From assembly GCA_965227515.1 (NCBI GenBank), contig CBDDFZ010000002.1:1-64000 (forward strand): a DNA stretch of 64,000 bases, written 5' to 3'. Positions 3,020 to 16,703 of the stretch are shown here, one piece after another. A program made the translations under genes and the position numbers. The first letter of the stretch is position 1; each line of letters opens with the position of its first letter. The notes under the pieces were generated by a model that was not told the DNA's origin, searched no databases, and saw nothing but the letters and a program-made list of their open reading frames with translations. Source of the DNA: Alphaproteobacteria bacterium. Its GTDB lineage: Bacteria; Pseudomonadota; Alphaproteobacteria; CALKHQ01.

Positions 3020-4279
3020 ATGTCAGCGCCGCACAGGCAGTCAAGCCAACCGAACGACTCAGCCGGGCTGCAAGAGGGTGCGGGCACCGGCGGCGCGCCG
3101 GTATTTCAGGACGCGTTGCGCCCGTGGACAGTCGACCGGTTCCTGGCCGAACAACGCACCCGGGCACCATTACATTTGTCCGGCCGCGACTGGGCCTATG
3201 ACCGGCTGATGAGCTGGGACGGCCTGAACGAACTCCTGAACATGACCGGCATCTGGAGTTCGTCGAGCCTGCAACTCGTCAGCAAGGGCCAGCCGATCCC
3301 CCCGCAAGCCTACTGCCGCACGGCGGTCGGCCGCGACGGCGGCGAGGTGGCCCAGCCCGATGCCCTGCGCGTCATGGAGCACCTCAAGCGCGGTGCCACG
3401 CTCATCGCCAACGACATCGACAGTCTGTCGCCGGCGTTGCGGCGCTTCGCCGACTCGATGGAGGCCGCGCTCGGCGGCAAGGTGCAGGCCAACCTCTATT
3501 GCTCGTGGGATGGGCACCAGGGCTTCGGGTCGCACTTCGACACCCATGAGGTCTACGCCCTCCATGTGGCGGGCGAAAAGGTATGGCGCGTCTATGAGGG
3601 CCGTCTCGACCGGCCGATCGCCCACCCCTACTTCCAGGAATTCGATGAGGACTACCATCGCGCGCACCGCGGCCCGGTGGTCATGGAGCCGTGCCTGCGG
3701 CCCGGTGACCTGCTGTATATCCCGCGTGGGCAGTATCACGATGCCACCGCCAACAGCGAGGGCACGATCCATATCGCGTTCGGTGTCACCTATCCCATCG
3801 GTCTCGACATCATGACGCTGCTACAGGACCTCGCGGTCAGCAACGGGCTTTTCCGGGAGGATTTGCCGCTCGCCAGCGTCGACTCTGACGGTTCCGCGCT
3901 GCGGCAACGCACCGATGAACTGGCCGCCGCGCTGCAAGACATATGCGCGTCACAGATGCTGCGCGATGGCCTGCGACGCATGCGCGATGGCATGCGCTAC
4001 GACCGCGGCGGGTTCGAGCTGCCGGTCTCCGCCCGCCCGGAATATCGGCGCGTCGCATCCGGATTGCGAGTCGTCCAGGCCAGTGGCACGTGGCTGCTGG
4101 AGTCGAAGAAGGGCCGATTACCGATCCCGGGCGGACTGGAGGATCTCGTGGCCTGGGTGGTCGAACGCGAGAGTTTCGATGGCAGCGCGCTGGCCGAAGC
4201 CTTCCCGGACCGGTCCCCGGCCGACCTGACCAAGTTCCTGAACGACATGCGCGGCATGCGCGTCATCGACGTCGCATGA
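3020..4279 (+). CDS. JmjC/cupin-4 (YcfD/RoxA-like) Fe(II)/2OG protein hydroxylase
   Basis: ANLYCS...GFGSHFDTHEVYALHVAGEKVW (HxD) and LRPGDLLYIPRGQYHDA (distal His). Confidence 0.85.
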   Translation: MSAPHRQSSQPNDSAGLQEGAGTGGAPVFQDALRPWTVDRFLAEQRTRAPLHLSGRDWAYDRLMSWDGLNELLNMTGIWSSSSLQLVSKGQPIPPQAYCRTAVGRDGGEVAQPDALRVMEHLKRGATLIANDIDSLSPALRRFADSMEAALGGKVQANLYCSWDGHQGFGSHFDTHEVYALHVAGEKVWRVYEGRLDRPIAHPYFQEFDEDYHRAHRGPVVMEPCLRPGDLLYIPRGQYHDATANSEGTIHIAFGVTYPIGLDIMTLLQDLAVSNGLFREDLPLASVDSDGSALRQRTDELAAALQDICASQMLRDGLRRMRDGMRYDRGGFELPVSARPEYRRVASGLRVVQASGTWLLESKKGRLPIPGGLEDLVAWVVERESFDGSALAEAFPDRSPADLTKFLNDMRGMRVIDVA

Positions 4280-4316
4280 CGTCCACGCCTGTCGTCTTCA
4301 CACAGTAGGCGCGGCG

Positions 4317-6242
4317 GTGCCGGGCGACGCCGTCCAGGCCATGCTCGCGGCGTGGCGTGCGGGTGACACGGCTGGGGCGCAAACCCTCGCACGCGAGATC
4401 CTGGAGCGCGATCCCGCGCAGCCACAGGCGCTGCAACTCTTGGCGGCAAGCGCCAGCGCCACCGGCGACTGGGCAACGGCGGCGGCGCACCTGGCGCGCG
4501 CGGCCGCGGTCCTGCCCGACAATTCCGCCATCCAATTCAGCCACGCCGACGCGCTGCGCCGTGCCGGCGACATGGCGGCGGCCATCCAGGTCCTCGACAC
4601 CCTCCTCGCGCATCACGCCGACCATGTTCCCGCACTGGTAACACTCGCTCAACTGATCGACCGCGGCACCCGCGCCGGTGAGGCGATCGTCCTTCTCGAC
4701 CGTGCTGTGGCGCGGGCGCCAAACGACCCGAAACCCCTGGTCGCGCGGGGCAAGGCGCGGCTGGCGCGCGGCAATCCCGACGGCGTTCAGGACCTGGCGC
4801 GCGCCTGTCGGCTGGCACCGGCCCTGGCCGCGGTGCATCTGGAGCACGGGCTTGCGCTGGCTGAACGGGGCCAGCACGAACAGGCAGAGGCGGCGTTACG
4901 CCGTGCCGTGGAGCGCGACCCCGCCCTTGTCGCCGGCCATGTCGCGCTGGCCAAGCTCGCCATGCTGCGCCGCGCGGCCAGCGACGCCGAGGCACGCTGC
5001 CGCGCCGCCCTGGATCATGCTGCCGACCATCCCGAGGCGCTGGCGCTGCTGGCACAGGCCCTTCGCGACCAACGGCGCGACGGAGAGGCGCGCCAGGCCG
5101 CCGAGCGCGCGCTGGCCGCCGCCCCGGCTCAACCGCTTGCCCGGCTGGTCGATGCCCAACTCCGGCGCGCGGCGGGCGACGCCAGCGATGCCCGCGCCCG
5201 GCTCGCCGCGCTTGTGGCTGACGATCCGCCGGGCGTGGTGGCCATAGAGGCGCTCACCGAACTCGGCCACGCCGAGGACGCGCTCGGCGCCTACGAAGCC
5301 GCCTTCGCCCATTTCACCGAGGCCAATCGCCGGGCCGAAGCCGGCAGCGGCATTGTGGCGGCCGAGCACAACCGCCTGCCGCGCCGGATTGACGGCATGC
5401 ACCGCTGCCTCAATGGGCCAGGGGCAGCCGCCGACCCGCCGGTCGACCGTGCGCCGGTGTTCGTGGTCGGCTTCCCGCGCTCCGGCACGACGCTGATCGA
5501 GCACCTGCTGGCCAGCCATGGCGGTTTCGCCGTCAGCGACGAGGAACCGATCGTCAGCCGGGTCGCCCGCAGCCTGTGTCTGGACGACCCGTCCCGGCTT
5601 GCCGCCTTGACCGCTGCCCAACTTGGCGCGGCGCGCGACGACTATTGGGCGCAGGCACGTGCCTGCCGGCCGGAGGTCGGTACCGGCACGCCATTCGTCG
5701 ACAAGCAGCCGTGGAACCTGATCGAGCTGCCGTTCATCGCCCGCCTGTTTCCCGGCGCCAAGGTGGTCGCGATGATCCGCGATCCGCGCGATGCCTGCCT
5801 CAGCGCCTTCATGCAGTATTTCACGCTGAACCCGGGCACCATCCATTTCACCCGGCTGGACCGGACGGCGGCGTTGTATCGCCGGATGATGGGTCTGTGG
5901 CAGCGCATGGCCGGCGCCCTGCCGCTGGACATGCGCGCGGTGCGCTACGAGGACTTGGTGGCGAACCCCGGCGCGGTGCTGCCGGGGGTGCTGGCGTTCC
6001 TGAATGCCGCGCCGGGCGTTGGCGGTGCCACACAACCGCTGGACCAGGCAGCAGGCGCCGCCGACCGCGCCATCAGCACGCCGAGTCGCGACGCGGTCAG
6101 TGGCCGCGTTACCCAACGCGCGGTTGGGCGCTGGCGGCACTATGCCCGGCAGCTCGGCCCGGTGCTGTCGGAGCTGGCGCCCTTCGTTGCCGCGTTCGGG
6201 TATGAGCCCGGTGAGGAAGCCGCGCCACCGTCAAGCCAATAA
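4317..6242 (+). CDS. TPR-repeat-containing sulfotransferase
   Basis: N-terminal Ala/Leu-rich TPR repeats; PAPS-binding loop VFVVGFPRSGTTL; FVDKQP, RDPRDACLS, VRYEDLV, GRWRHY. Confidence 0.9.
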   Translation: MPGDAVQAMLAAWRAGDTAGAQTLAREILERDPAQPQALQLLAASASATGDWATAAAHLARAAAVLPDNSAIQFSHADALRRAGDMAAAIQVLDTLLAHHADHVPALVTLAQLIDRGTRAGEAIVLLDRAVARAPNDPKPLVARGKARLARGNPDGVQDLARACRLAPALAAVHLEHGLALAERGQHEQAEAALRRAVERDPALVAGHVALAKLAMLRRAASDAEARCRAALDHAADHPEALALLAQALRDQRRDGEARQAAERALAAAPAQPLARLVDAQLRRAAGDASDARARLAALVADDPPGVVAIEALTELGHAEDALGAYEAAFAHFTEANRRAEAGSGIVAAEHNRLPRRIDGMHRCLNGPGAAADPPVDRAPVFVVGFPRSGTTLIEHLLASHGGFAVSDEEPIVSRVARSLCLDDPSRLAALTAAQLGAARDDYWAQARACRPEVGTGTPFVDKQPWNLIELPFIARLFPGAKVVAMIRDPRDACLSAFMQYFTLNPGTIHFTRLDRTAALYRRMMGLWQRMAGALPLDMRAVRYEDLVANPGAVLPGVLAFLNAAPGVGGATQPLDQAAGAADRAISTPSRDAVSGRVTQRAVGRWRHYARQLGPVLSELAPFVAAFGYEPGEEAAPPSSQ

Positions 6243-10312: not shown

Positions 10313-11350
10313 ATGGCCAAGCTGGCCGGCAAGGCGGTCGAGAAGGAGCTGGCGGGCCCAGACCCCACGTTCGCCGCCTACCTGCTGTTCGGTCCCGATG
10401 CCGGGCTGATCCAGGAACGCGCCATCCATCTGGCCGGCATGGTGGTCGATGACCTCGCCGATCCGTTCCGCGTTACCAGGCTCAGCGGTGCCGAACTGGC
10501 CAAGGACCCGGTGCGGCTGGCCGACGAGCGCGCCGCCGGGTCGCTGATCGGCGGGCGGCGGGTCGTGTGGCTGGACAGCGCTGGCGACCGCAATACCGCC
10601 GCGGTGTCGGCGGCGCTTGACGACGACGCGCCGGAGGCGGCGCTGCTGATCGTCACCGCCGACGAGCTTCAGGCCCGCAGCAGCCTGCGCAAGGCGTTCG
10701 AGGGGCACAAGGCCGCGGCCGCCATCGGCTGCTATGCCGATGGGCCGGAGCAACTGGAGGCGCTGATCACCGCGACACTCGGCGGTGCGGGCGTGGCGAT
10801 CGAGCCCGATGCGAAGGCGCACCTGGTCACCATGTTGGGCGCTGACCGCATGGCGACCCGCCGCGAACTCGCCAAGCTGATCGACTATGCCGGGCCGAAT
10901 GCCGGCACGCTGACCGCCGCCGACGTGCTGGCCGCGATGACCGATGGCAACACCCAGTCGCTGGACGCTCTGGCCTATGCCGTGCTCGGCGGCAACATGG
11001 CGGAGATGGGACGGCTGTTCGACCGGCTGATGGAGCAGGACGTGGCGACCGTCGCCATTCTGCGCGCCTGCGGGCGGGTCTTCGAACGCGGGCTGACCGC
11101 GCATCTGCTGGCTGCTAACGGGATGTCGCTGTCCGACGCGCTGGGCAAGCTGAGGCCGCCGGTGTTCTTCAAGGATCGCCCGGTGTTCCTGCGCGCGCTG
11201 GGCGGCCGCTCGGTCAAGGGCCTGATGGCGGCCATCGCCCGGCTTCAGGAGGCCGAGGCGCAAGTGAAGTCGACCGGTCTGCCCGACGCTGCCGTGTGCG
11301 AGCACGCGTTGCTCGCCATCGCCGCTGCCGGCGGACGGCGGGGGAGCTGA
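10313..11350 (+). CDS. holA: DNA polymerase III delta subunit
   Basis: YLLFGPDAGL, DPFRV, SLIGGRRVV, SSLRKAFE, LGADRMATRRELAKL, LRPPVFFK; synteny after lptE. Confidence 0.93.
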   Translation: MAKLAGKAVEKELAGPDPTFAAYLLFGPDAGLIQERAIHLAGMVVDDLADPFRVTRLSGAELAKDPVRLADERAAGSLIGGRRVVWLDSAGDRNTAAVSAALDDDAPEAALLIVTADELQARSSLRKAFEGHKAAAAIGCYADGPEQLEALITATLGGAGVAIEPDAKAHLVTMLGADRMATRRELAKLIDYAGPNAGTLTAADVLAAMTDGNTQSLDALAYAVLGGNMAEMGRLFDRLMEQDVATVAILRACGRVFERGLTAHLLAANGMSLSDALGKLRPPVFFKDRPVFLRALGGRSVKGLMAAIARLQEAEAQVKSTGLPDAAVCEHALLAIAAAGGRRGS

Positions 11351-11371
11351 CACTCCCGGTTAGCCTTACCT

Positions 11372-11542
11372 TGTCGCCCTCGCCCTTGTGGCGAGGGCCC
11401 ATCGTGGGGTCAGTTCGAAATCACAGCTTTTGGATTCGTGAGCTGCAGCAGCGCTTTGCGACCCGCACGAGAACTCGCGACCTTTTGGCAGCGGTGCGTC
11501 CATGCCTGTGAATGGGTCCTCGCCACAAGGGCGAGGACGACG
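11372..11542. repeat. REP doublet (family A, copy 1)
   Basis: TGTCGCCCTCGCCCTTGTGGCGAGGGCCCAT, ~110-nt linker, then the inverted ATGGGTCCTCGCCACAAGGGCGAGGACGACG. Confidence 0.85.
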
Positions 11543-11568
11543 AATGAAAGTGTTGCAGTCGTTGGCTG

Positions 11569-12456
11569 CTAAAACACCCGGCCGCGGAACAGGCCGGCGG
11601 GGCGGGCGACCAGCATTACCACCATGATCGCGAACGCAATGGCGGTCTTGTAGCTGGGCGGCAACAGCGGCTCGGTGCCGAACAGCGGATAGGTCGACAG
11701 TTCCTCGGCCATGCCGATGATCAGGCCGCCGGCAATCGCGCCGTAGGGCCGCCCGATGCCGCCCAGGATGGCGGCGGCGAAGATCGGCAGCAGCAGGTCC
11801 CAGCCCAAATTCGGGTGCAGCTCGGTGTCCATCGCCATGAACACGCCGCCGGCCGCCGCCAGCCCGGCGCCGATCACCCAGGTCCACACGATCACCTGGC
11901 GGGTGTTGATGCCGCTGATGCGCGCCAGGTCGGCATCGTCGCTCATCGCGCGCATGGCCTTGCCGATGCGGGTGCGGGTCAGGAACAGGTGCAGCGCCAC
12001 CACCAGCGCCACCGCGCCGCCGACGATGTAGAGGTAGCGCTCCTGGATCAGCAACGGTTGCAGGTCCTGCAGCGGGCGCTGGATGCCGCGCTGGTAGCTG
12101 ACCTTCTCCACCCCCCAGAAAAGCTGGATCAGCGAGCGCACCATCAGCGCGACACCGAACGAGGCGATGACAATGACGATGGTGGGGCTTTTGCGGAACG
12201 GCCGATAGAAGGCGAGGTCGATGCCGACCGCGGCGGCCGCCGTCAGGACCATCGCCACCGGCACCGCCGCGATGGCGGGCAGGCCGGTCAGCGCGATCAT
12301 GGTGAGGCCGAAATAGGCACCCAGCGTCATCAGGTCGCCGTGGGCGAAGTGGGCGAAGCGCAGGATGCCGAACAGCATCGACACCCCGATGGCCCCCAGG
12401 GCGTAGACGCAGCCGAGGACCAGGCCGGGGATCAGGTAGAAGTTGATGAATTCCAT
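11569..12456 (-). CDS. livH: Branched-chain amino acid (Liv-type) ABC transporter permease, LivH-like
   Basis: GCVYALGAIG, FAHFAHGD, TRIGKAMRA, FAAAILGGIG. Confidence 0.88.
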   Translation of the reverse strand: MEFINFYLIPGLVLGCVYALGAIGVSMLFGILRFAHFAHGDLMTLGAYFGLTMIALTGLPAIAAVPVAMVLTAAAAVGIDLAFYRPFRKSPTIVIVIASFGVALMVRSLIQLFWGVEKVSYQRGIQRPLQDLQPLLIQERYLYIVGGAVALVVALHLFLTRTRIGKAMRAMSDDADLARISGINTRQVIVWTWVIGAGLAAAGGVFMAMDTELHPNLGWDLLLPIFAAAILGGIGRPYGAIAGGLIIGMAEELSTYPLFGTEPLLPPSYKTAIAFAIMVVMLVARPAGLFRGRVF

Positions 12457-12484
12457 GGTGGAGGTTCAGCCACACATACTGAAT

Positions 12485-12724
12485 TGTCGTCCTTGCCCGA
12501 AGCCCACGGGTCCGGCCTGTGGCCGGCCCGAGGACAGGCTCCGCTGAGTGGCGAGGACCCATTTGTGTCCGAGACTGCAACAACGATGGACAGTCTTTAC
12601 CGGCCGATGGAAGGGAAATGTCGCCTCAACCGGATGTGCCGAGCTTGCCCCTCCCATGGATCCTCGACCCTTCGCCCGCTGCTTGCCGTTGGGCAAGCCA
12701 GGCGGGCTTCGGTCAAGGATGACA
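12485..12724. repeat. REP doublet (family A, copy 2) with extra hairpins in both loops
   Basis: TGTCGTCCTTGCC-[insert]-GGCGAGGACCCAT ... ATGGATCCTCGACC-[insert]-GGTCAAGGATGACA. Confidence 0.75.
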
Positions 12725-12750
12725 GTGTAGATTGGTGGCCGCATTCCTAC

Positions 12751-13494
12751 TCACCCGCCCAGGAACGCTTCGGCGACTTCGGGCTGGGCCAGCAGCTCGG
12801 CGCCGGTGCCGGTGTGGCGGTTGCGCCCGGTGGCCAGCACATAGCCGCGATGGGCGATGGCGAGCGCCTGGCGCGCGTTCTGCTCCACCATCATCACCGC
12901 GACGCCGGCATCGTTGATCGCCTGCACCCGCTCGAATACCTCGTCCATCACCCTTGGGCTGAGCCCGGCGGTCGGCTCGTCCAGCAGCAGCAGGCGCGGC
13001 TCCACCATCAGCGCGCGGCCGATGGCGACCATCTGGCGCTGCCCGCCTGACAGTTCCCCGGCGGGCTGGCGGCGCTTGTCGGCCAGGATCGGGAACAGGC
13101 CGTAGACCTGGGACAGCGTGCCGGCGATGGGGTCGCGGCGCACGAACGCCCCCATCTCCAGATTCTCTTCGACGCTGAGGTTGGGGAACACATTGCGCGA
13201 CTGCGGCACATAGGCCATGCCCTGGCGCACCAGCGCCTCTGGCGCGGCGCCGGTAACGTCGCGGCCCAGGAAGCCGACATGGCCGGCGCGCAGGCTCACC
13301 ATGCCGAACACCGCCTTCATCACCGTCGACTTGCCGGCGCCATTAGGGCCGATCACCACGGTGATCTCACCGGGCATCACCGCGATGTCGACGCCGTGCA
13401 GGATGTCCATGCCGCCATAGCCGCCGACCAGTCCGGTCGCATCCAGCACGGCCTCGCCGGCATCGGGATGTGCGGTTGTGGCGGGGGCGCTCAT
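12751..13494 (-). CDS. livF: Liv-type ABC ATP-binding protein, LivF-like
   Basis: GPNGAGKST, LSVEENLEMG, LSGGQRQMVAIGRAL, LLLLDEPTAGL. Confidence 0.88.
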   Translation of the reverse strand: MSAPATTAHPDAGEAVLDATGLVGGYGGMDILHGVDIAVMPGEITVVIGPNGAGKSTVMKAVFGMVSLRAGHVGFLGRDVTGAAPEALVRQGMAYVPQSRNVFPNLSVEENLEMGAFVRRDPIAGTLSQVYGLFPILADKRRQPAGELSGGQRQMVAIGRALMVEPRLLLLDEPTAGLSPRVMDEVFERVQAINDAGVAVMMVEQNARQALAIAHRGYVLATGRNRHTGTGAELLAQPEVAEAFLGG

Positions 13495-13500
13495 CAGTGT

Positions 13501-14388
13501 TCAGGCCGGGGCCGGGCGCGCGGCGCCGGCAGGGGCGTGGCCTGCCGCGCGCGATCCCGACCCGGCCGGCGTCTCCCTGGCGGCGGCGCTGCCCAGATAG
13601 GCCTCGATCACCCGCGGATCGGCGCGCACCTCATCCATGGTGCCTTCGGTCAGCACGGTGCCCTCGGCCATCACCACCACCGGGTCGCAGAGCCGCGCGA
13701 TCAGGTCCATGTCGTGCTCGATGACGCAGAAGGTGTAGCCGTCTTCCCGGTTCAGGCGTTCGATGGCGCCGGCCAGCGTGCTCATCAGCGTCGGGTTGAC
13801 CCCGGCGCCGATCTCGTCCAGCAGCACGACCTTGGCGTCGCTCATCATCGTGCGGCCCAGTTCCAGCAGCTTCTTCTGCCCGCCGGAGAGGTTGCCGGCC
13901 TCTTCCGCCGCCAGGTGGTCGAGCTTCAGGAACGCCAGCACCTGCTCGGCGCGGGCGCGAATGCGGGCCTCCTCCGCCTTGATCTTCCCCCAGTGCAGGA
14001 ACGCCGACCACAGGTGCTCGCCGGTCTGGTCGCCCGGCACCAGCATCAAGTTCTCCAGCACCGACAGGTGGGCGAACTCGTGCGCGATCTGGAACGTGCG
14101 GACCAGGCCCAGGCGGAACAGCCGGTGCGGCGGCTGGCCGGTGACGTCCTTCCCGAACAGGCGCACGCGGCCCGCCTCTGGCGTGTAGAGGCCGGCAACG
14201 ACGTTGAACAGGGTGGACTTGCCGGCACCGTTCGGGCCGATCAGCCCGGTCACCGAGCCGGCCGGCACCTCGAACGAGCAGTCGCGCACCGCCTGGATGC
14301 CGCCGAAGGACTTCGACACCCGCTCGATTGCAATGGCGGGCGTGGCGGCGGACGCGGTGGCCGGTGCCGGTGAGGCGGCGGACGACAT
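13501..14388 (-). CDS. livG: Liv-type ABC ATP-binding protein, LivG-like
   Basis: KSFGGIQAV, GPNGAGKST, GLVRTFQ, LSGGQKKLLEL, IEHDM, DPRVIEAYLG. Confidence 0.88.
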   Translation of the reverse strand: MSSAASPAPATASAATPAIAIERVSKSFGGIQAVRDCSFEVPAGSVTGLIGPNGAGKSTLFNVVAGLYTPEAGRVRLFGKDVTGQPPHRLFRLGLVRTFQIAHEFAHLSVLENLMLVPGDQTGEHLWSAFLHWGKIKAEEARIRARAEQVLAFLKLDHLAAEEAGNLSGGQKKLLELGRTMMSDAKVVLLDEIGAGVNPTLMSTLAGAIERLNREDGYTFCVIEHDMDLIARLCDPVVVMAEGTVLTEGTMDEVRADPRVIEAYLGSAAARETPAGSGSRAAGHAPAGAARPAPA

Positions 14389-14418
14389 GGAACGCCGGTC
14401 TTCGAACGACCGGAACGG

Positions 14419-14946
14419 TCAGTGCGCCAGCAGCTTCTGGTTGGAGACGAAGAAGGTGCCGGTGAACTCGACCTCGATGTTGTAGACCTCGAAGCTGCCG
14501 CGCCGCATGACGCACGTGGTGATCGGCAGTTCGGCGCCGTCCATGTTGATCAGCACGTCGCCGACGCTGGTCTCGACCGCGCGGAACCAGCCCTCCGTGG
14601 TCAGGAACGGGTGGTCGCGGGTCAGCAGCAGCTTCTCGCCGCCGACGCCCATTTCGTAGACCCAGGATTCGGTCCGCGAGGTGACGTGGCTAATGCGGTT
14701 CTGCTCGATGCCCTGGGTCGAGATATTGTAGGACATCACGATGTCGCCGACCTGCAGGTCTGCGATGCGGCGCATGCCATTGGGCGTCAGCACCAGGGTG
14801 TCGGCCACGAACGAGTTCGGGGCGTCGTCCGCACCGGCCGGAAACGCCGGCACATTGGCCAGTTCGGCCCGCGCGGACAGCGCGCCGCCGGCCAGAATCA
14901 TCACACACACACTGAGAGCCGCTGTCAGTCGGGCTACGATCATCAT
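14419..14946 (-). CDS. Secreted stand-alone Hint (intein-like) domain protein
   Basis: Signal peptide ending ARA; block A SFVADTLVLTPNG..IADLQVGDIV; block B TRDHPF; block F VYNIEV; ends LLAH-stop. Confidence 0.85.
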   Translation of the reverse strand: MMIVARLTAALSVCVMILAGGALSARAELANVPAFPAGADDAPNSFVADTLVLTPNGMRRIADLQVGDIVMSYNISTQGIEQNRISHVTSRTESWVYEMGVGGEKLLLTRDHPFLTTEGWFRAVETSVGDVLINMDGAELPITTCVMRRGSFEVYNIEVEFTGTFFVSNQKLLAH

Positions 14947-15047
14947 TCCCCCGGTGTCCTTCGCTGTCGTGGCAACCGCGCCATCCTAGCGAATATCCGG
15001 CACGGCGGCACGTATTGACTGGATCCGAGCGACCCTAATGCGCCGGA

Positions 15048-15719
15048 TTAGTGCGCCGGCCCGCTGTCGTCGTTGCCGGCGCTGCCCTGCACCAGCGCCA
15101 TGTCGATCAGCGTCACCATCATCTCCAGCCGCGCCCGCAGGTCGGGCGCCTCCAGCAGCGCCTGCTTTTCCGCCGGCTCGAACGGGCAGACCATGGTCAG
15201 CGTCGAGACGATCTGGTTCAGCGGGGTCTGCGCGATGGCGTCGAAGTCGGCCTTGATCGAATGCAGGTCGAAAAACGCCGGCAGCCGGTCGGTCAGCGGG
15301 GTGCCGTCCGTGGACTCGACGGGCTCGACGTCCAGGTCGCCGACATAGTCCGACCAGTCGGCGGTGACCCGGCGATAGCCGCGCACCGTCGCCAATTCCT
15401 CGCGCACCCGGAACCGGGCGACCCCGGTCAGGGTGATCAGGATCCGGCCGTCGTCGGTCTCGGCGAACTGGGTGATCCGGCCGGCCCCGCCGATGTCGTA
15501 GACCGCCGGCGCCTGCCCGCCCTCGTCCTCGTCGCGCGGCTGGATCATGCCGATCATCCGGTCCGCCTTCAGGGCGTCGATCACCATGTTCAGGTAGCGC
15601 GGCTCGAAGATATTCAGCGGCAGTTCGGCATGGGGCAGCACCAGCGCCCCGGTCAGGGGAAAGATCGGCAGCGTTGCCGGCAGTTGTTCCGCGCTCGGAT
15701 GGAAGGCGGACCGCGCCAT
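15048..15719 (-). CDS. Lon peptidase N-terminal (substrate-binding) domain protein
   Basis: LPIFPLTGALVLP..LPLNIFEPRYLNMV, GRITQFAETDDGR, EKQALLEA. Confidence 0.92.
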   Translation of the reverse strand: MARSAFHPSAEQLPATLPIFPLTGALVLPHAELPLNIFEPRYLNMVIDALKADRMIGMIQPRDEDEGGQAPAVYDIGGAGRITQFAETDDGRILITLTGVARFRVREELATVRGYRRVTADWSDYVGDLDVEPVESTDGTPLTDRLPAFFDLHSIKADFDAIAQTPLNQIVSTLTMVCPFEPAEKQALLEAPDLRARLEMMVTLIDMALVQGSAGNDDSGPAH

Positions 15720-15767
15720 CAGCGCCGCGACCTGCTGGGGGGAGCCGGCAATGTCACGCGGCCTGCC

Positions 15768-16703
15768 TCATGAGAACAGCATCGACGACAGCTTGCGCCG
15801 CCCCTGCAACGTGACCGGGTGGGTGTGGCCCAGCGCCTCGAAGAACTTCAGCAACTGGGTGCGAGCGGCCTCGTCGTTCCAGGCGCGGTCGCGGCGGAAC
15901 AGCTCCAGCAAATTGTCGATGGCGGCCTCGGTCTGGCCCAGGGCGTACTGCGCCTTGGCGAGGTCGAGGCGGGCCTGGTGGGCGTTGCCGTCGGCCTCCA
16001 CCGCGGCCTGCAACTCCGGCAGGCGCGCGACCGCGTCGGCGTTTTCCGCCGCCAGCTCCAGGGCCGTCCGCGCGCCTTGCAACTCGGGCGCCTCGCGCAT
16101 CTCTTCCGGGAAGGCGTCGAACTGCTGCTGCGCGCCGGCGATGTCGCCGGCGGTCAGGATGGCGCGGATCAGGCCGTCGGCCGCCGGCAACCGCCCGTTG
16201 TCGGCCTGCAGCACCTGGCTGTAGATGCCGGCCGCCGTGCGTCCGTCGCCGCTGTCCAGCGCGGCCTTGGCCTGGGTCATCGCGTCCTCGATGGCCTGTG
16301 CCTGCGCCGCCGCCGAGCCGCCGGCCGCTGTCATCACCTTGTCGATGAACGCCTTGATCTGGCTCTCCGGCTGGGCGCCGACAAAACCGTCCAGCGGCCG
16401 GCCGTTGGCGAAGGCAAACACCGCCGGGATCGACTGGATGCGCATCTGCTGGGCAATCTGCGGGTGTTCGTCGATGTTCAGCTTGACCATCTTCACCGCA
16501 CCGCGGGTGGCGCGCACCGCCGCCTCCAGCGCCGGGCCCAGGGTCTTGCACGGCCCGCACCAGGGCGCCCAGAAGTCCACGACCACCGGCGTTTCCATCG
16601 ACGCCTCGATGACGTCGGCCATGAAATTCTCGGTCGTGGTGTCCTTGACGACATCCGCTGCCGCGCCGCCGGGGCCGCCAGCCATGCCAAGCATTGGTTC
16701 CAT
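15768..16703 (-). CDS. cnoX: Thioredoxin-TPR chaperedoxin (CnoX/YbbN)
   Basis: VVDFWAPWCGPCK followed by TPR helices and C-terminal GRRKLSSMLFS. Confidence 0.9.
   Translation of the reverse strand: MEPMLGMAGGPGGAAADVVKDTTTENFMADVIEASMETPVVVDFWAPWCGPCKTLGPALEAAVRATRGAVKMVKLNIDEHPQIAQQMRIQSIPAVFAFANGRPLDGFVGAQPESQIKAFIDKVMTAAGGSAAAQAQAIEDAMTQAKAALDSGDGRTAAGIYSQVLQADNGRLPAADGLIRAILTAGDIAGAQQQFDAFPEEMREAPELQGARTALELAAENADAVARLPELQAAVEADGNAHQARLDLAKAQYALGQTEAAIDNLLELFRRDRAWNDEAARTQLLKFFEALGHTHPVTLQGRRKLSSMLFS

Follow-up and report, generated by a model that had tools for sequence, protein, structure and literature searches.

A small Hint-only protein with a predicted signal peptide from an alphaproteobacterium keeps the residues of the N-terminal acyl shift

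Introduction

In bacteria, Hint domains are known from inteins and from large toxins, where they serve as release modules. In the first 64,000 nt of contig CBDDFZ010000002.1 from an Alphaproteobacteria bacterium (assembly GCA_965227515.1; this whole stretch is called the window in the following), a gene on the reverse strand encodes a protein of 175 amino acids (aa), which consists of a predicted signal peptide, a peptide of 17 residues (the N-extein), and a Hint domain that forms the end of the protein. The locus raises the question of what a Hint domain may do when it makes up a whole, presumably exported protein. A first-pass annotation of the window had proposed that the protein cannot splice in cis and may instead release or ligate a peptide outside the cytoplasm. 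We analyzed the fold of the protein, its relatives, its catalytic positions, and its genomic surroundings. The function that we favor, at about even confidence, is that of an exported single-turnover Hint protein, which would perform the N-terminal acyl shift only, at Asn44-Ser45, and would free or transfer the short peptide in front of it.

Layout and Fold of the Hint Protein

The reading frame showed the composition of a genuine gene of this genome, with a GC content of 0.90 at the third codon positions (GC3) versus 0.65 overall. Residues 1–25 contain a hydrophobic core with a mean Kyte-Doolittle value of about 2. Ala25 and Ala27, at positions −3 and −1, are invariant in all 11 members of the family described below, and the next residue is always Glu or Asp. 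Ala at −3 and −1 is a requirement for cleavage by signal peptidase I. The predicted signal peptide of 27 residues ending in ARA, as assigned in the first-pass annotation, agrees with these features.

The Pfam profile PT-HINT (PF07591) matched aa 51–170 with an E-value of 8.1e-12 and 46 bits, well above the cut-off of 27.7 bits. The best solved relative was a bacterial intein-like (BIL) domain of Clostridium thermocellum (PDB 2lwy_A), which aligned to aa 44–175 (E 7.3e-12). An AlphaFold2 model based on an alignment of 26 rows had a mean predicted local distance difference test (pLDDT) score of 87.7, with values above 90 from about residue 41 onwards. Foldseek also returned 2lwy as the best match of this model, with a template modeling (TM) score of 0.92 on the target and a root mean square deviation of 1.3 Å; Tetrahymena BIL2 came second (E 1.2e-11), and mini-inteins followed further down. 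Other Hint profiles gave weaker results: Hedgehog Hint (PF01079) reached 13 bits (cut-off 29.7), Hint_2 for B-type BILs (PF13403) reached 26.7 bits (cut-off 28.4) and covered aa 45–88 only, Intein_splicing stayed under its cut-off, the NCBIfam model intein_Nterm reached 21.7 bits (cut-off 24.5), and intein_Cterm was matched at model positions 1–17 of 24 only. The protein adopts a genuine Hint fold, which belongs to the PT-HINT/BIL type. Retranslation together with the PT-HINT, 2lwy, and Foldseek matches also bore out the earlier description of a complete fold that starts with SFVADT, contains TRDH, and ends in LLAH-stop.

The protein shares with PT-HINT and A-type BIL domains the profile match above threshold, the fold, a nucleophile at residue 1, and the block B motif Thr-x-x-His; it lacks their C-terminal His-Asn and their location ahead of a toxin domain or inside a large secreted protein. 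An intein would be inserted into a conserved host protein, with a terminal Asn and a Cys, Ser, or Thr at position +1, and here the C-extein is absent altogether. As to the Hedgehog/Hog class, the profile score was below the cut-off, and the protein ends at block G without a region for recognition of a sterol or adduct.

Conservation within the Family

A search of all cluster representatives resulted in 9960 matches at E ≤ 0.001. The sole match that reached 50% identity was a protein of 172 aa (P0003). A word-index search with the single protein recovered the protein itself only (1 of 278 candidates), and it was profile searches that led to a family of 11 clusters at 90% identity, including the window protein, with lengths of 170–175 aa. 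The ten other clusters have 170–172 aa and are 47%–52% identical to the window protein. We refer to these 11 clusters as the alpha family.

All 11 members share one layout: a signal peptide of the Ala-x-Ala type, Glu or Asp, a peptide of 17–18 residues with Val-Pro and a final Asn, and then the Hint features NSF at the start, TRDHP, VYN, TG, and LLAH followed directly by the stop codon. The alignment has 56 invariant columns. The arrangement of signal peptide, short peptide, and S-F...H-stop, for which conservation among homologs had been named as a check, is therefore found in 11/11 clusters. A truncated toxin gene, also tried as an explanation, is largely refuted, since 11/11 clusters end in His-stop and the gene is present in all four collected genomes of the order to which the window genome belongs. 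The homologs do not all continue from His-Asn into a toxin domain, the finding that had been named as evidence for a truncated remnant.

Among 401 sampled genomes of the class, matches at the level of orthologues (E 1e-80 or better) were limited to those four. Five other genomes of the class gave weak matches (E ≤ 1e-12) in frames of 411–2470 aa, together with one unrelated frame of 181 aa. A scan of metagenomes yielded a single locus; its protein is the one already known from a collected genome (G002), and the locus brought no additional context.

Conservation was unevenly distributed along the protein, with a mean pairwise identity of 0.38 for the signal peptide, 0.55 for the N-extein peptide, and 0.69 for the Hint domain. 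Within the N-extein, the conserved elements are the initial Glu or Asp, Val-Pro, an aromatic residue or Ile two residues further on, and the final Asn. The first-pass annotation had pointed out that the peptide contains AFPAG, which resembles the block A motif CFPAG. This similarity is peculiar to the window copy: the other ten members have VPP(Y/F/I) or VPAY at this place, and we consider it a coincidence.

Kept and Lost Catalytic Residues

For comparison of the catalytic positions, the best 150 representatives were re-aligned to the window protein, and the 96 domains (from 81 proteins) that cover residues 45–175 were evaluated. The His of block G is followed by Asn in 95 of these 96 domains; the single domain with a stop codon at this position is the orthologue P0003. 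Position 1 of the Hint domain is occupied by Cys in 85 and by Ser in 6 domains. At the position of the block F His (residue 163 of the window protein), 82 domains have His and one has Gly, which is again P0003; in the alpha family, Gly was found in 11/11 members. Position 145 holds Ile, Val, or Leu in 83 domains and Cys in P0003 only. The block B residues are Thr in 90/96 and His in 96/96 domains, and the residue after the Tyr of block F is Asn and not Asp in 95/96, as is Asn156 of the window protein. Thus, the alpha family departs from its relatives at Ser1, Cys145, Gly163, and the missing Asn, and agrees with them at block B. Ser45, Thr109, and His112 are invariant in all 11 members.

A review (PMC7765530) assigns the block A Cys or Ser and the block B Thr and His to step 1, the N-terminal acyl shift, and the block G Asn to step 3, the C-terminal cleavage; the block F Asp or His and the penultimate His are listed there among the conserved assisting residues. 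Judged by this assignment, the alpha family has kept the residues of step 1 and has lost the Asn of step 3 together with the block F His. Splicing in cis is impossible for a protein of this sequence, because it has neither a terminal Asn nor a C-extein: His175 is directly followed by the stop codon, and this holds for 11/11 family clusters. The lack of a terminal Asn and of a C-extein, and the resulting inability to splice in cis, had already been stated for the window protein in the first-pass annotation.

We also compared the residues at the junction in an unbiased set. The residue before Ser1 in 12 Ser1 domains was Asn in seven cases and Ser in three, and two domains were unaligned at this position; the corresponding pairs of Cys1 domains were NC in 21 cases versus GC in 42 and SC in 30. 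Actinobacterial loci that start with NSF had been fetched with a pattern containing NSF, so the Asn-Ser start at those loci was not counted as support.

Proposed Reaction

We infer export, cleavage, and the relevant product as follows from the domain layout, the fold, and the conserved set of kept and lost residues described above. After export by the Sec pathway, removal of the signal peptide at Ala27|Glu28 would leave a mature protein composed of the 17-residue peptide and the Hint domain. Ser45, aided by Thr109 and His112, would then convert the peptide bond Asn44-Ser45 to an ester by an N-to-O acyl shift. Nothing further would happen in cis. Since the C-extein nucleophile, the terminal Asn, and the block F His that a continuation in cis would need are lacking, the ester would be resolved by water, which would give a free 17-mer with Asn at its end, or by a different nucleophile of the cell envelope, which would result in transfer of the peptide.

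The earlier suggestion of a device for the N-terminal half-reaction is in line with the retention of Ser45, Thr109, and His112 and with the loss of the block F His (Gly163 in 11/11); that the peptide would be ligated rather than released stays a proposal. In its most far-reaching form, which we consider unlikely, the ester would be resolved by an amine of a peptidoglycan stem peptide, a lipid head group, or a Lys of a protein, and the Hint domain would act like Hedgehog, as a one-shot ligase that tags its acceptor with a short Pro-rich peptide without ATP; or the freed peptide would be cargo or signal of the probably co-transcribed LivGFH importer. The Micromonosporaceae proteins described in the next section would then do the same with a disulfide-looped peptide.

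Stand-Alone Hint Proteins in Other Bacteria

A metagenomic protein of 176 aa (P0112) combines a hydrophobic N-terminus with a peptide ending in Asn, the start Ser-Phe-Thr-Ala-Asp-Thr, and TREH. Its block F His is replaced by Tyr, and its end lacks His-Asn. Small Hint-only genes were also seen at two actinobacterial loci, of Micromonospora (L012) and Dactylosporangium (L016), and a profile search starting from these resulted in seven proteins of Micromonosporaceae (P0187–P0193). These have 173–229 aa, a hydrophobic N-terminus without a clear Ala-x-Ala site behind it, a Cys-x4-Cys peptide ending in Asn, SFTADTLVLMADGS, TANHRFWV, and VYNLDV. In six of the seven, the block F His is replaced by Gln, Asn, or Tyr, and the same six end in His-Glu-stop; the seventh (P0193) has kept the block F His and ends in Arg-Ser-stop. 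The source databases call them Hint domain-containing proteins. The seven proteins resemble the alpha family in layout and in the kept and lost residues. They differ from the window protein in sequence (about 30% identity), in the Cys-x4-Cys motif of the N-extein, and in the end His-Glu-stop of six of them.

Taken over all stand-alone proteins, the block F His is missing in 18/19. It is present in 52/58 actinobacterial toxin-linked domains and in 66/78 representative domains with a locatable block F. Block F was located by a regular expression in these counts, and the expression was mis-anchored in two rows of the alpha family, for which reason Gly163 of this family was taken from the family alignment. 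That one layout occurs both in Micromonosporaceae and in an order of Alphaproteobacteria suggests a wider class that has gone unnoticed. No liv genes, which accompany the Hint gene in the window, were seen at the two Micromonosporaceae loci, and the link to liv genes is therefore not a feature of this wider class. Upstream of the small gene of L012, an open reading frame (ORF) at 3029-3817 on the reverse strand looked transposase-like by eye.

We asked whether the stand-alone proteins have one origin or several. The tree comprised 99 of the 170 collected rows, namely the 19 stand-alone proteins, a random 25 of the 71 actinobacterial toxin-linked domains, and a random 55 of the 80 representative domains. 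In the careful tree, the actinobacterial stand-alone proteins were nested among 24 actinobacterial toxin-linked domains with a support of 100/99. The alpha family was placed elsewhere (100/100), and P0112 stood beside another representative (100/95). The actinobacterial clade had a Shimodaira–Hasegawa-like approximate likelihood ratio test (SH-aLRT) support of 97 in the quick LG+G4 tree and of 99 in the quick mixture tree. A single clade of all stand-alone proteins was not rejected by approximately unbiased (AU) tests with quick LG+G4 (p = 0.525 and 0.594), where the constrained trees were 3.6 and 9.2 log-likelihood units better than a short free search. It was also not rejected under the careful mixture model, where the constrained tree was 26.2 units worse (p = 0.167).

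Hint domains of other kinds were observed in the course of these searches. The genome of the window itself carries a canonical Cys1 Hint domain on contig 1 near position 402390 (L002 847-2541, reverse strand). It contains SSCFTGETEVL, is part of a frame of 564 aa, and ends in LVHNK followed by a long tail rich in Asp, Gly, and Ser, which provides an internal contrast to the stand-alone protein. Another genome (G020; L007 1459-2667, reverse strand) encodes an exported protein of 402 aa in which an N-terminal domain is combined with a Cys1 Hint domain at the C-terminus that ends in LVHNKIQ-stop. Only three residues follow the Asn in this protein, and several representatives likewise end in HNK or HNY; Hint domains that stand at the end of a protein and still have the Asn are not rare. 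A protein of 177 aa (G126; L106 1459-1992) has no signal peptide and consists of a short leader, a Cys1 Hint domain, and VHG with a tail of 17 residues. It is a small Hint-only protein of a different kind.

Alternative Explanations

Several points weigh against an acyl shift at Asn44-Ser45 as the function of the protein. The signal peptide was called from sequence features, namely the hydrophobic core and the Ala-x-Ala pattern. Nearly every Hint domain has the Thr and His of block B, so their retention may be partly structural and is weaker evidence than it may seem. The N-extein of the window copy shares only 30% identity with its counterparts in the family, no better than the 32% of the signal peptide, so that constraint on the peptide is weak except at Val-Pro and the final Asn. 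The dN/dS ratio (Nei–Gojobori method) was 0.39–0.75 for the Hint gene versus 0.24–0.57 for livG in the same genomes, a difference that is weak either way because the GC3 of 0.90 compresses dS. Finally, oxy-esters of Ser1 hydrolyze slowly in engineered inteins.

The Hint fold could have been reused without any chemistry, in a small periplasmic binding or structural protein with the peptide as linker or tail and with Ser, Thr, and His serving folding or the binding of a ligand. We take this possibility seriously without regarding it as probable. Two catalytic positions are already lost, which gives the protein the look of a decaying enzyme, and the window copy has a poorly conserved N-extein; the invariant Cys145 together with Arg110, Asp111, and Pro113 could line a binding site, and a gene that lies ahead of ABC transporter genes without an adjacent gene for a binding protein would suit a periplasmic partner of the transporter. 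However, the losses concern the residues of the C-terminal reaction and the retentions those of the N-terminal reaction, in the alpha family as well as in the Micromonosporaceae proteins and P0112. The junction Asn44-Ser45-Phe46 is invariant, and it is not obvious why a non-catalytic fold should need a nucleophile exactly at position 1, after a short peptide. The same pattern of kept and lost residues would also fit if the hydrophobic stretch stayed uncleaved as a membrane anchor and the cut at Asn44|Ser45 freed the Hint domain as the product. The lack of a clear Ala-x-Ala site in the Micromonosporaceae relatives speaks for such a self-release, but Ala at −3 and −1 and the subsequent Glu or Asp are invariant in all 11 members of the alpha family, as cleavage by signal peptidase I requires, and this makes an anchor quite improbable for the window protein.

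The gene could also be the functionless remainder of a polymorphic toxin locus that has lost its toxin and immunity genes. Of the three family members that carry a label in the source databases (P0003, P0152, and P0153), two, from metagenome-assembled genomes of Alphaproteobacteria, are listed as polymorphic toxin-type HINT domain-containing proteins and the third as a hypothetical protein, and the nearest relatives in sequence are toxin-linked or tandem Hint domains. A remnant would hardly be expected to show an intact frame, a similar length, and the same last residue in 11/11 clusters at about 50% identity, with the 56 invariant columns mentioned above, or to persist in 4/4 genomes of the order. 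Moreover, no representative above 44% identity has a toxin tail, and no toxin or immunity gene lies beside the Hint gene at any of the four loci. The lack of an adjacent toxin or immunity gene had been stated before for the locus in the window; livG is located downstream there and a gene for a LON substrate-binding domain upstream. We regard decay of a toxin locus as very improbable, and an N-terminal acyl shift of the exported protein stays our preferred reading.

Comparison to Known Systems

The A-type BIL and PT-HINT domains, with the C. thermocellum BIL domain (2lwy) as the best match in sequence and structure, have blocks A, B, F, and G in common with the window protein. Known members are parts of large secreted proteins or polymorphic toxins and end in His-Asn (95/96), whereas in the window protein the domain is the whole protein, starts with Ser1 instead of Cys1, has Gly for the block F His, follows an N-extein of 17 aa only, and lacks the terminal Asn and any C-extein or toxin.

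By analogy, the expected behavior of the protein resembles that of Hedgehog and Hog proteins, which are secreted and in which the N-terminal acyl shift is followed by attack of an outside nucleophile, without a C-terminal Asn reaction. The window protein differs in being bacterial, in having Ser1 instead of Cys1, and in having nothing behind the Hint fold for recognition of a sterol or adduct. A distant analogue is provided by eukaryotic Hog proteins that combine a signal peptide with short N-termini (PMC2362128). For passage of a Hint N-extein to an outside nucleophile, PMC7765530 and PMC8616854 give precedents in the transfer from Hedgehog to cholesterol and from Tetrahymena BIL2 to a Lys of a substrate. 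BIL2 belongs to the BUBL locus (PDB 6y75/6tmm), was the second-best structural match, and, as described in PMC8616854, passes its N-extein on to an amine in a second protein, which makes it a precedent for ligation. Unlike the window protein, BIL2 starts with Cys1 and ends in Asn (the crystallized variant was C1A-N143A); it is a cytoplasmic domain with ubiquitin-like domains on its flanks.

A stand-alone exported Hint protein of bacteria was not found in full-text searches that covered the main texts of openly accessible papers; all BILs met there were parts of large proteins, of toxins, or of ubiquitin-like loci. Databases name the family members by the domain only. Here, the Hint domain is the whole, presumably exported protein and has kept only the chemistry for activating a short peptide at its C-terminus. 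Provided that it is active, the protein would represent a minimal natural device that makes or attaches a small peptide without ATP and outside the cytoplasm, following the logic of Hedgehog, and it would offer protein engineering a compact natural N-cleaving Hint domain with Ser1.

Features and Genomic Surroundings

The coordinates of the Hint gene, its parts, and the genes downstream of it are compiled in Table 1, together with the small Hint-only genes at the two actinobacterial loci.

Table 1. Features of the Hint gene and of related or neighboring genes. Positions refer to the window, except for the last two rows, which refer to the respective genome loci.
Feature	Position	Strand	Remarks
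Whole coding sequence of the stand-alone, predicted exported Hint protein	14419..14946	-	175 aa + stop; ORF list, retranslation
Predicted signal peptide, aa 1-27, MMIVARLTAALSVCVMILAGGALSARA	14866..14946	-	Predicted signal peptidase I site ARA|E, Ala27|Glu28
Short N-extein peptide, aa 28-44, ELANVPAFPAGADDAPN	14815..14865	-	17 aa; Val32, Pro33, Asn44 invariant in the family
Ser45, Hint residue 1, block A nucleophile	14812..14814	-	Putative scissile bond Asn44-Ser45; N44, S45, F46 invariant
Hint domain, aa 45-175, SFVADT...KLLAH	14422..14814	-	Pfam PT-HINT, PDB 2lwy, AlphaFold2 model, Foldseek
Block B, TRDH, 109-112 (Thr109, His112)	14611..14622	-	Invariant in 11/11 members
Cys145, family-specific invariant Cys	14512..14514	-	Ile/Val/Leu in 83/96 related domains
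Block F, VYNIEVEFTGTFFV	14446..14487	-	Asn156 kept; Gly163 replaces the usual block F His
His175, block G His, last residue	14422..14424	-	Relatives have Asn at the position of the stop
Stop codon	14419..14421	-	Directly after His175
livG-type ABC ATPase gene	13501..14388	-	30 nt downstream of the Hint gene; Pfam ABC_tran + BCA_ABC_TP_C
livF-type ABC ATPase gene	12751..13494	-	Pfam ABC_tran; 76% identical in G001
livH-type permease gene, last of the conserved block	11569..12456	-	Pfam BPD_transp_2; 78% identical in G001
Small Hint-only gene, Micromonospora (L012)	about 3866-4429		
Small Hint-only gene, Dactylosporangium (L016)	3905-4447		

Upstream of the Hint gene, the window contains the LON substrate-binding-domain gene and a thioredoxin-TPR gene. 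The gap between the Hint gene and livG, 30 nt in the window, measures 3, 9, and 13 nt in three relatives. A relative of another genus (G001) has kept the order Hint-livG-livF-livH, with identities of 54%, 68%, 76%, and 78%, and none of the genes that flank the locus in the window (leuS, lptE, holA, LON, Trx, and ProX) was present within the 10 kb fetched around the G001 locus. In this second genus, a gene for a peptidoglycan-binding domain (PG_binding_1) lies upstream on the same strand (L087 7273-9273, reverse strand; L006 95-1282, forward strand), which is absent from the window locus. The four genes travel as a block across two genera, the only two in which this was seen, and this fits an operon. 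Judged by the gene order and the short gaps, the Hint gene is probably co-transcribed with livG-livF-livH.

The ABC block itself (11569-14388 on the reverse strand of the window; L087 4062-6559) comprises two ATPases and one LivH-type permease. Neither a gene for a LivM-type or other second permease nor one for a binding protein was found beside the block in the window or in G001. An Rfam scan of positions 11000-15800 gave two sub-threshold matches, neither of them credible, and a scan for promoters and terminators revealed nothing useful near the Hint gene. The 294 nt spacer between livF and livH in the window (12457-12750) folds far better than shuffled sequences (z = −5.6). It is a mosaic of short pieces that occur at 13 other places of the genome with 76%–100% identity, and the corresponding junction in G001 has about 12 nt; the spacer looks like an insertion of dispersed intergenic repeats.

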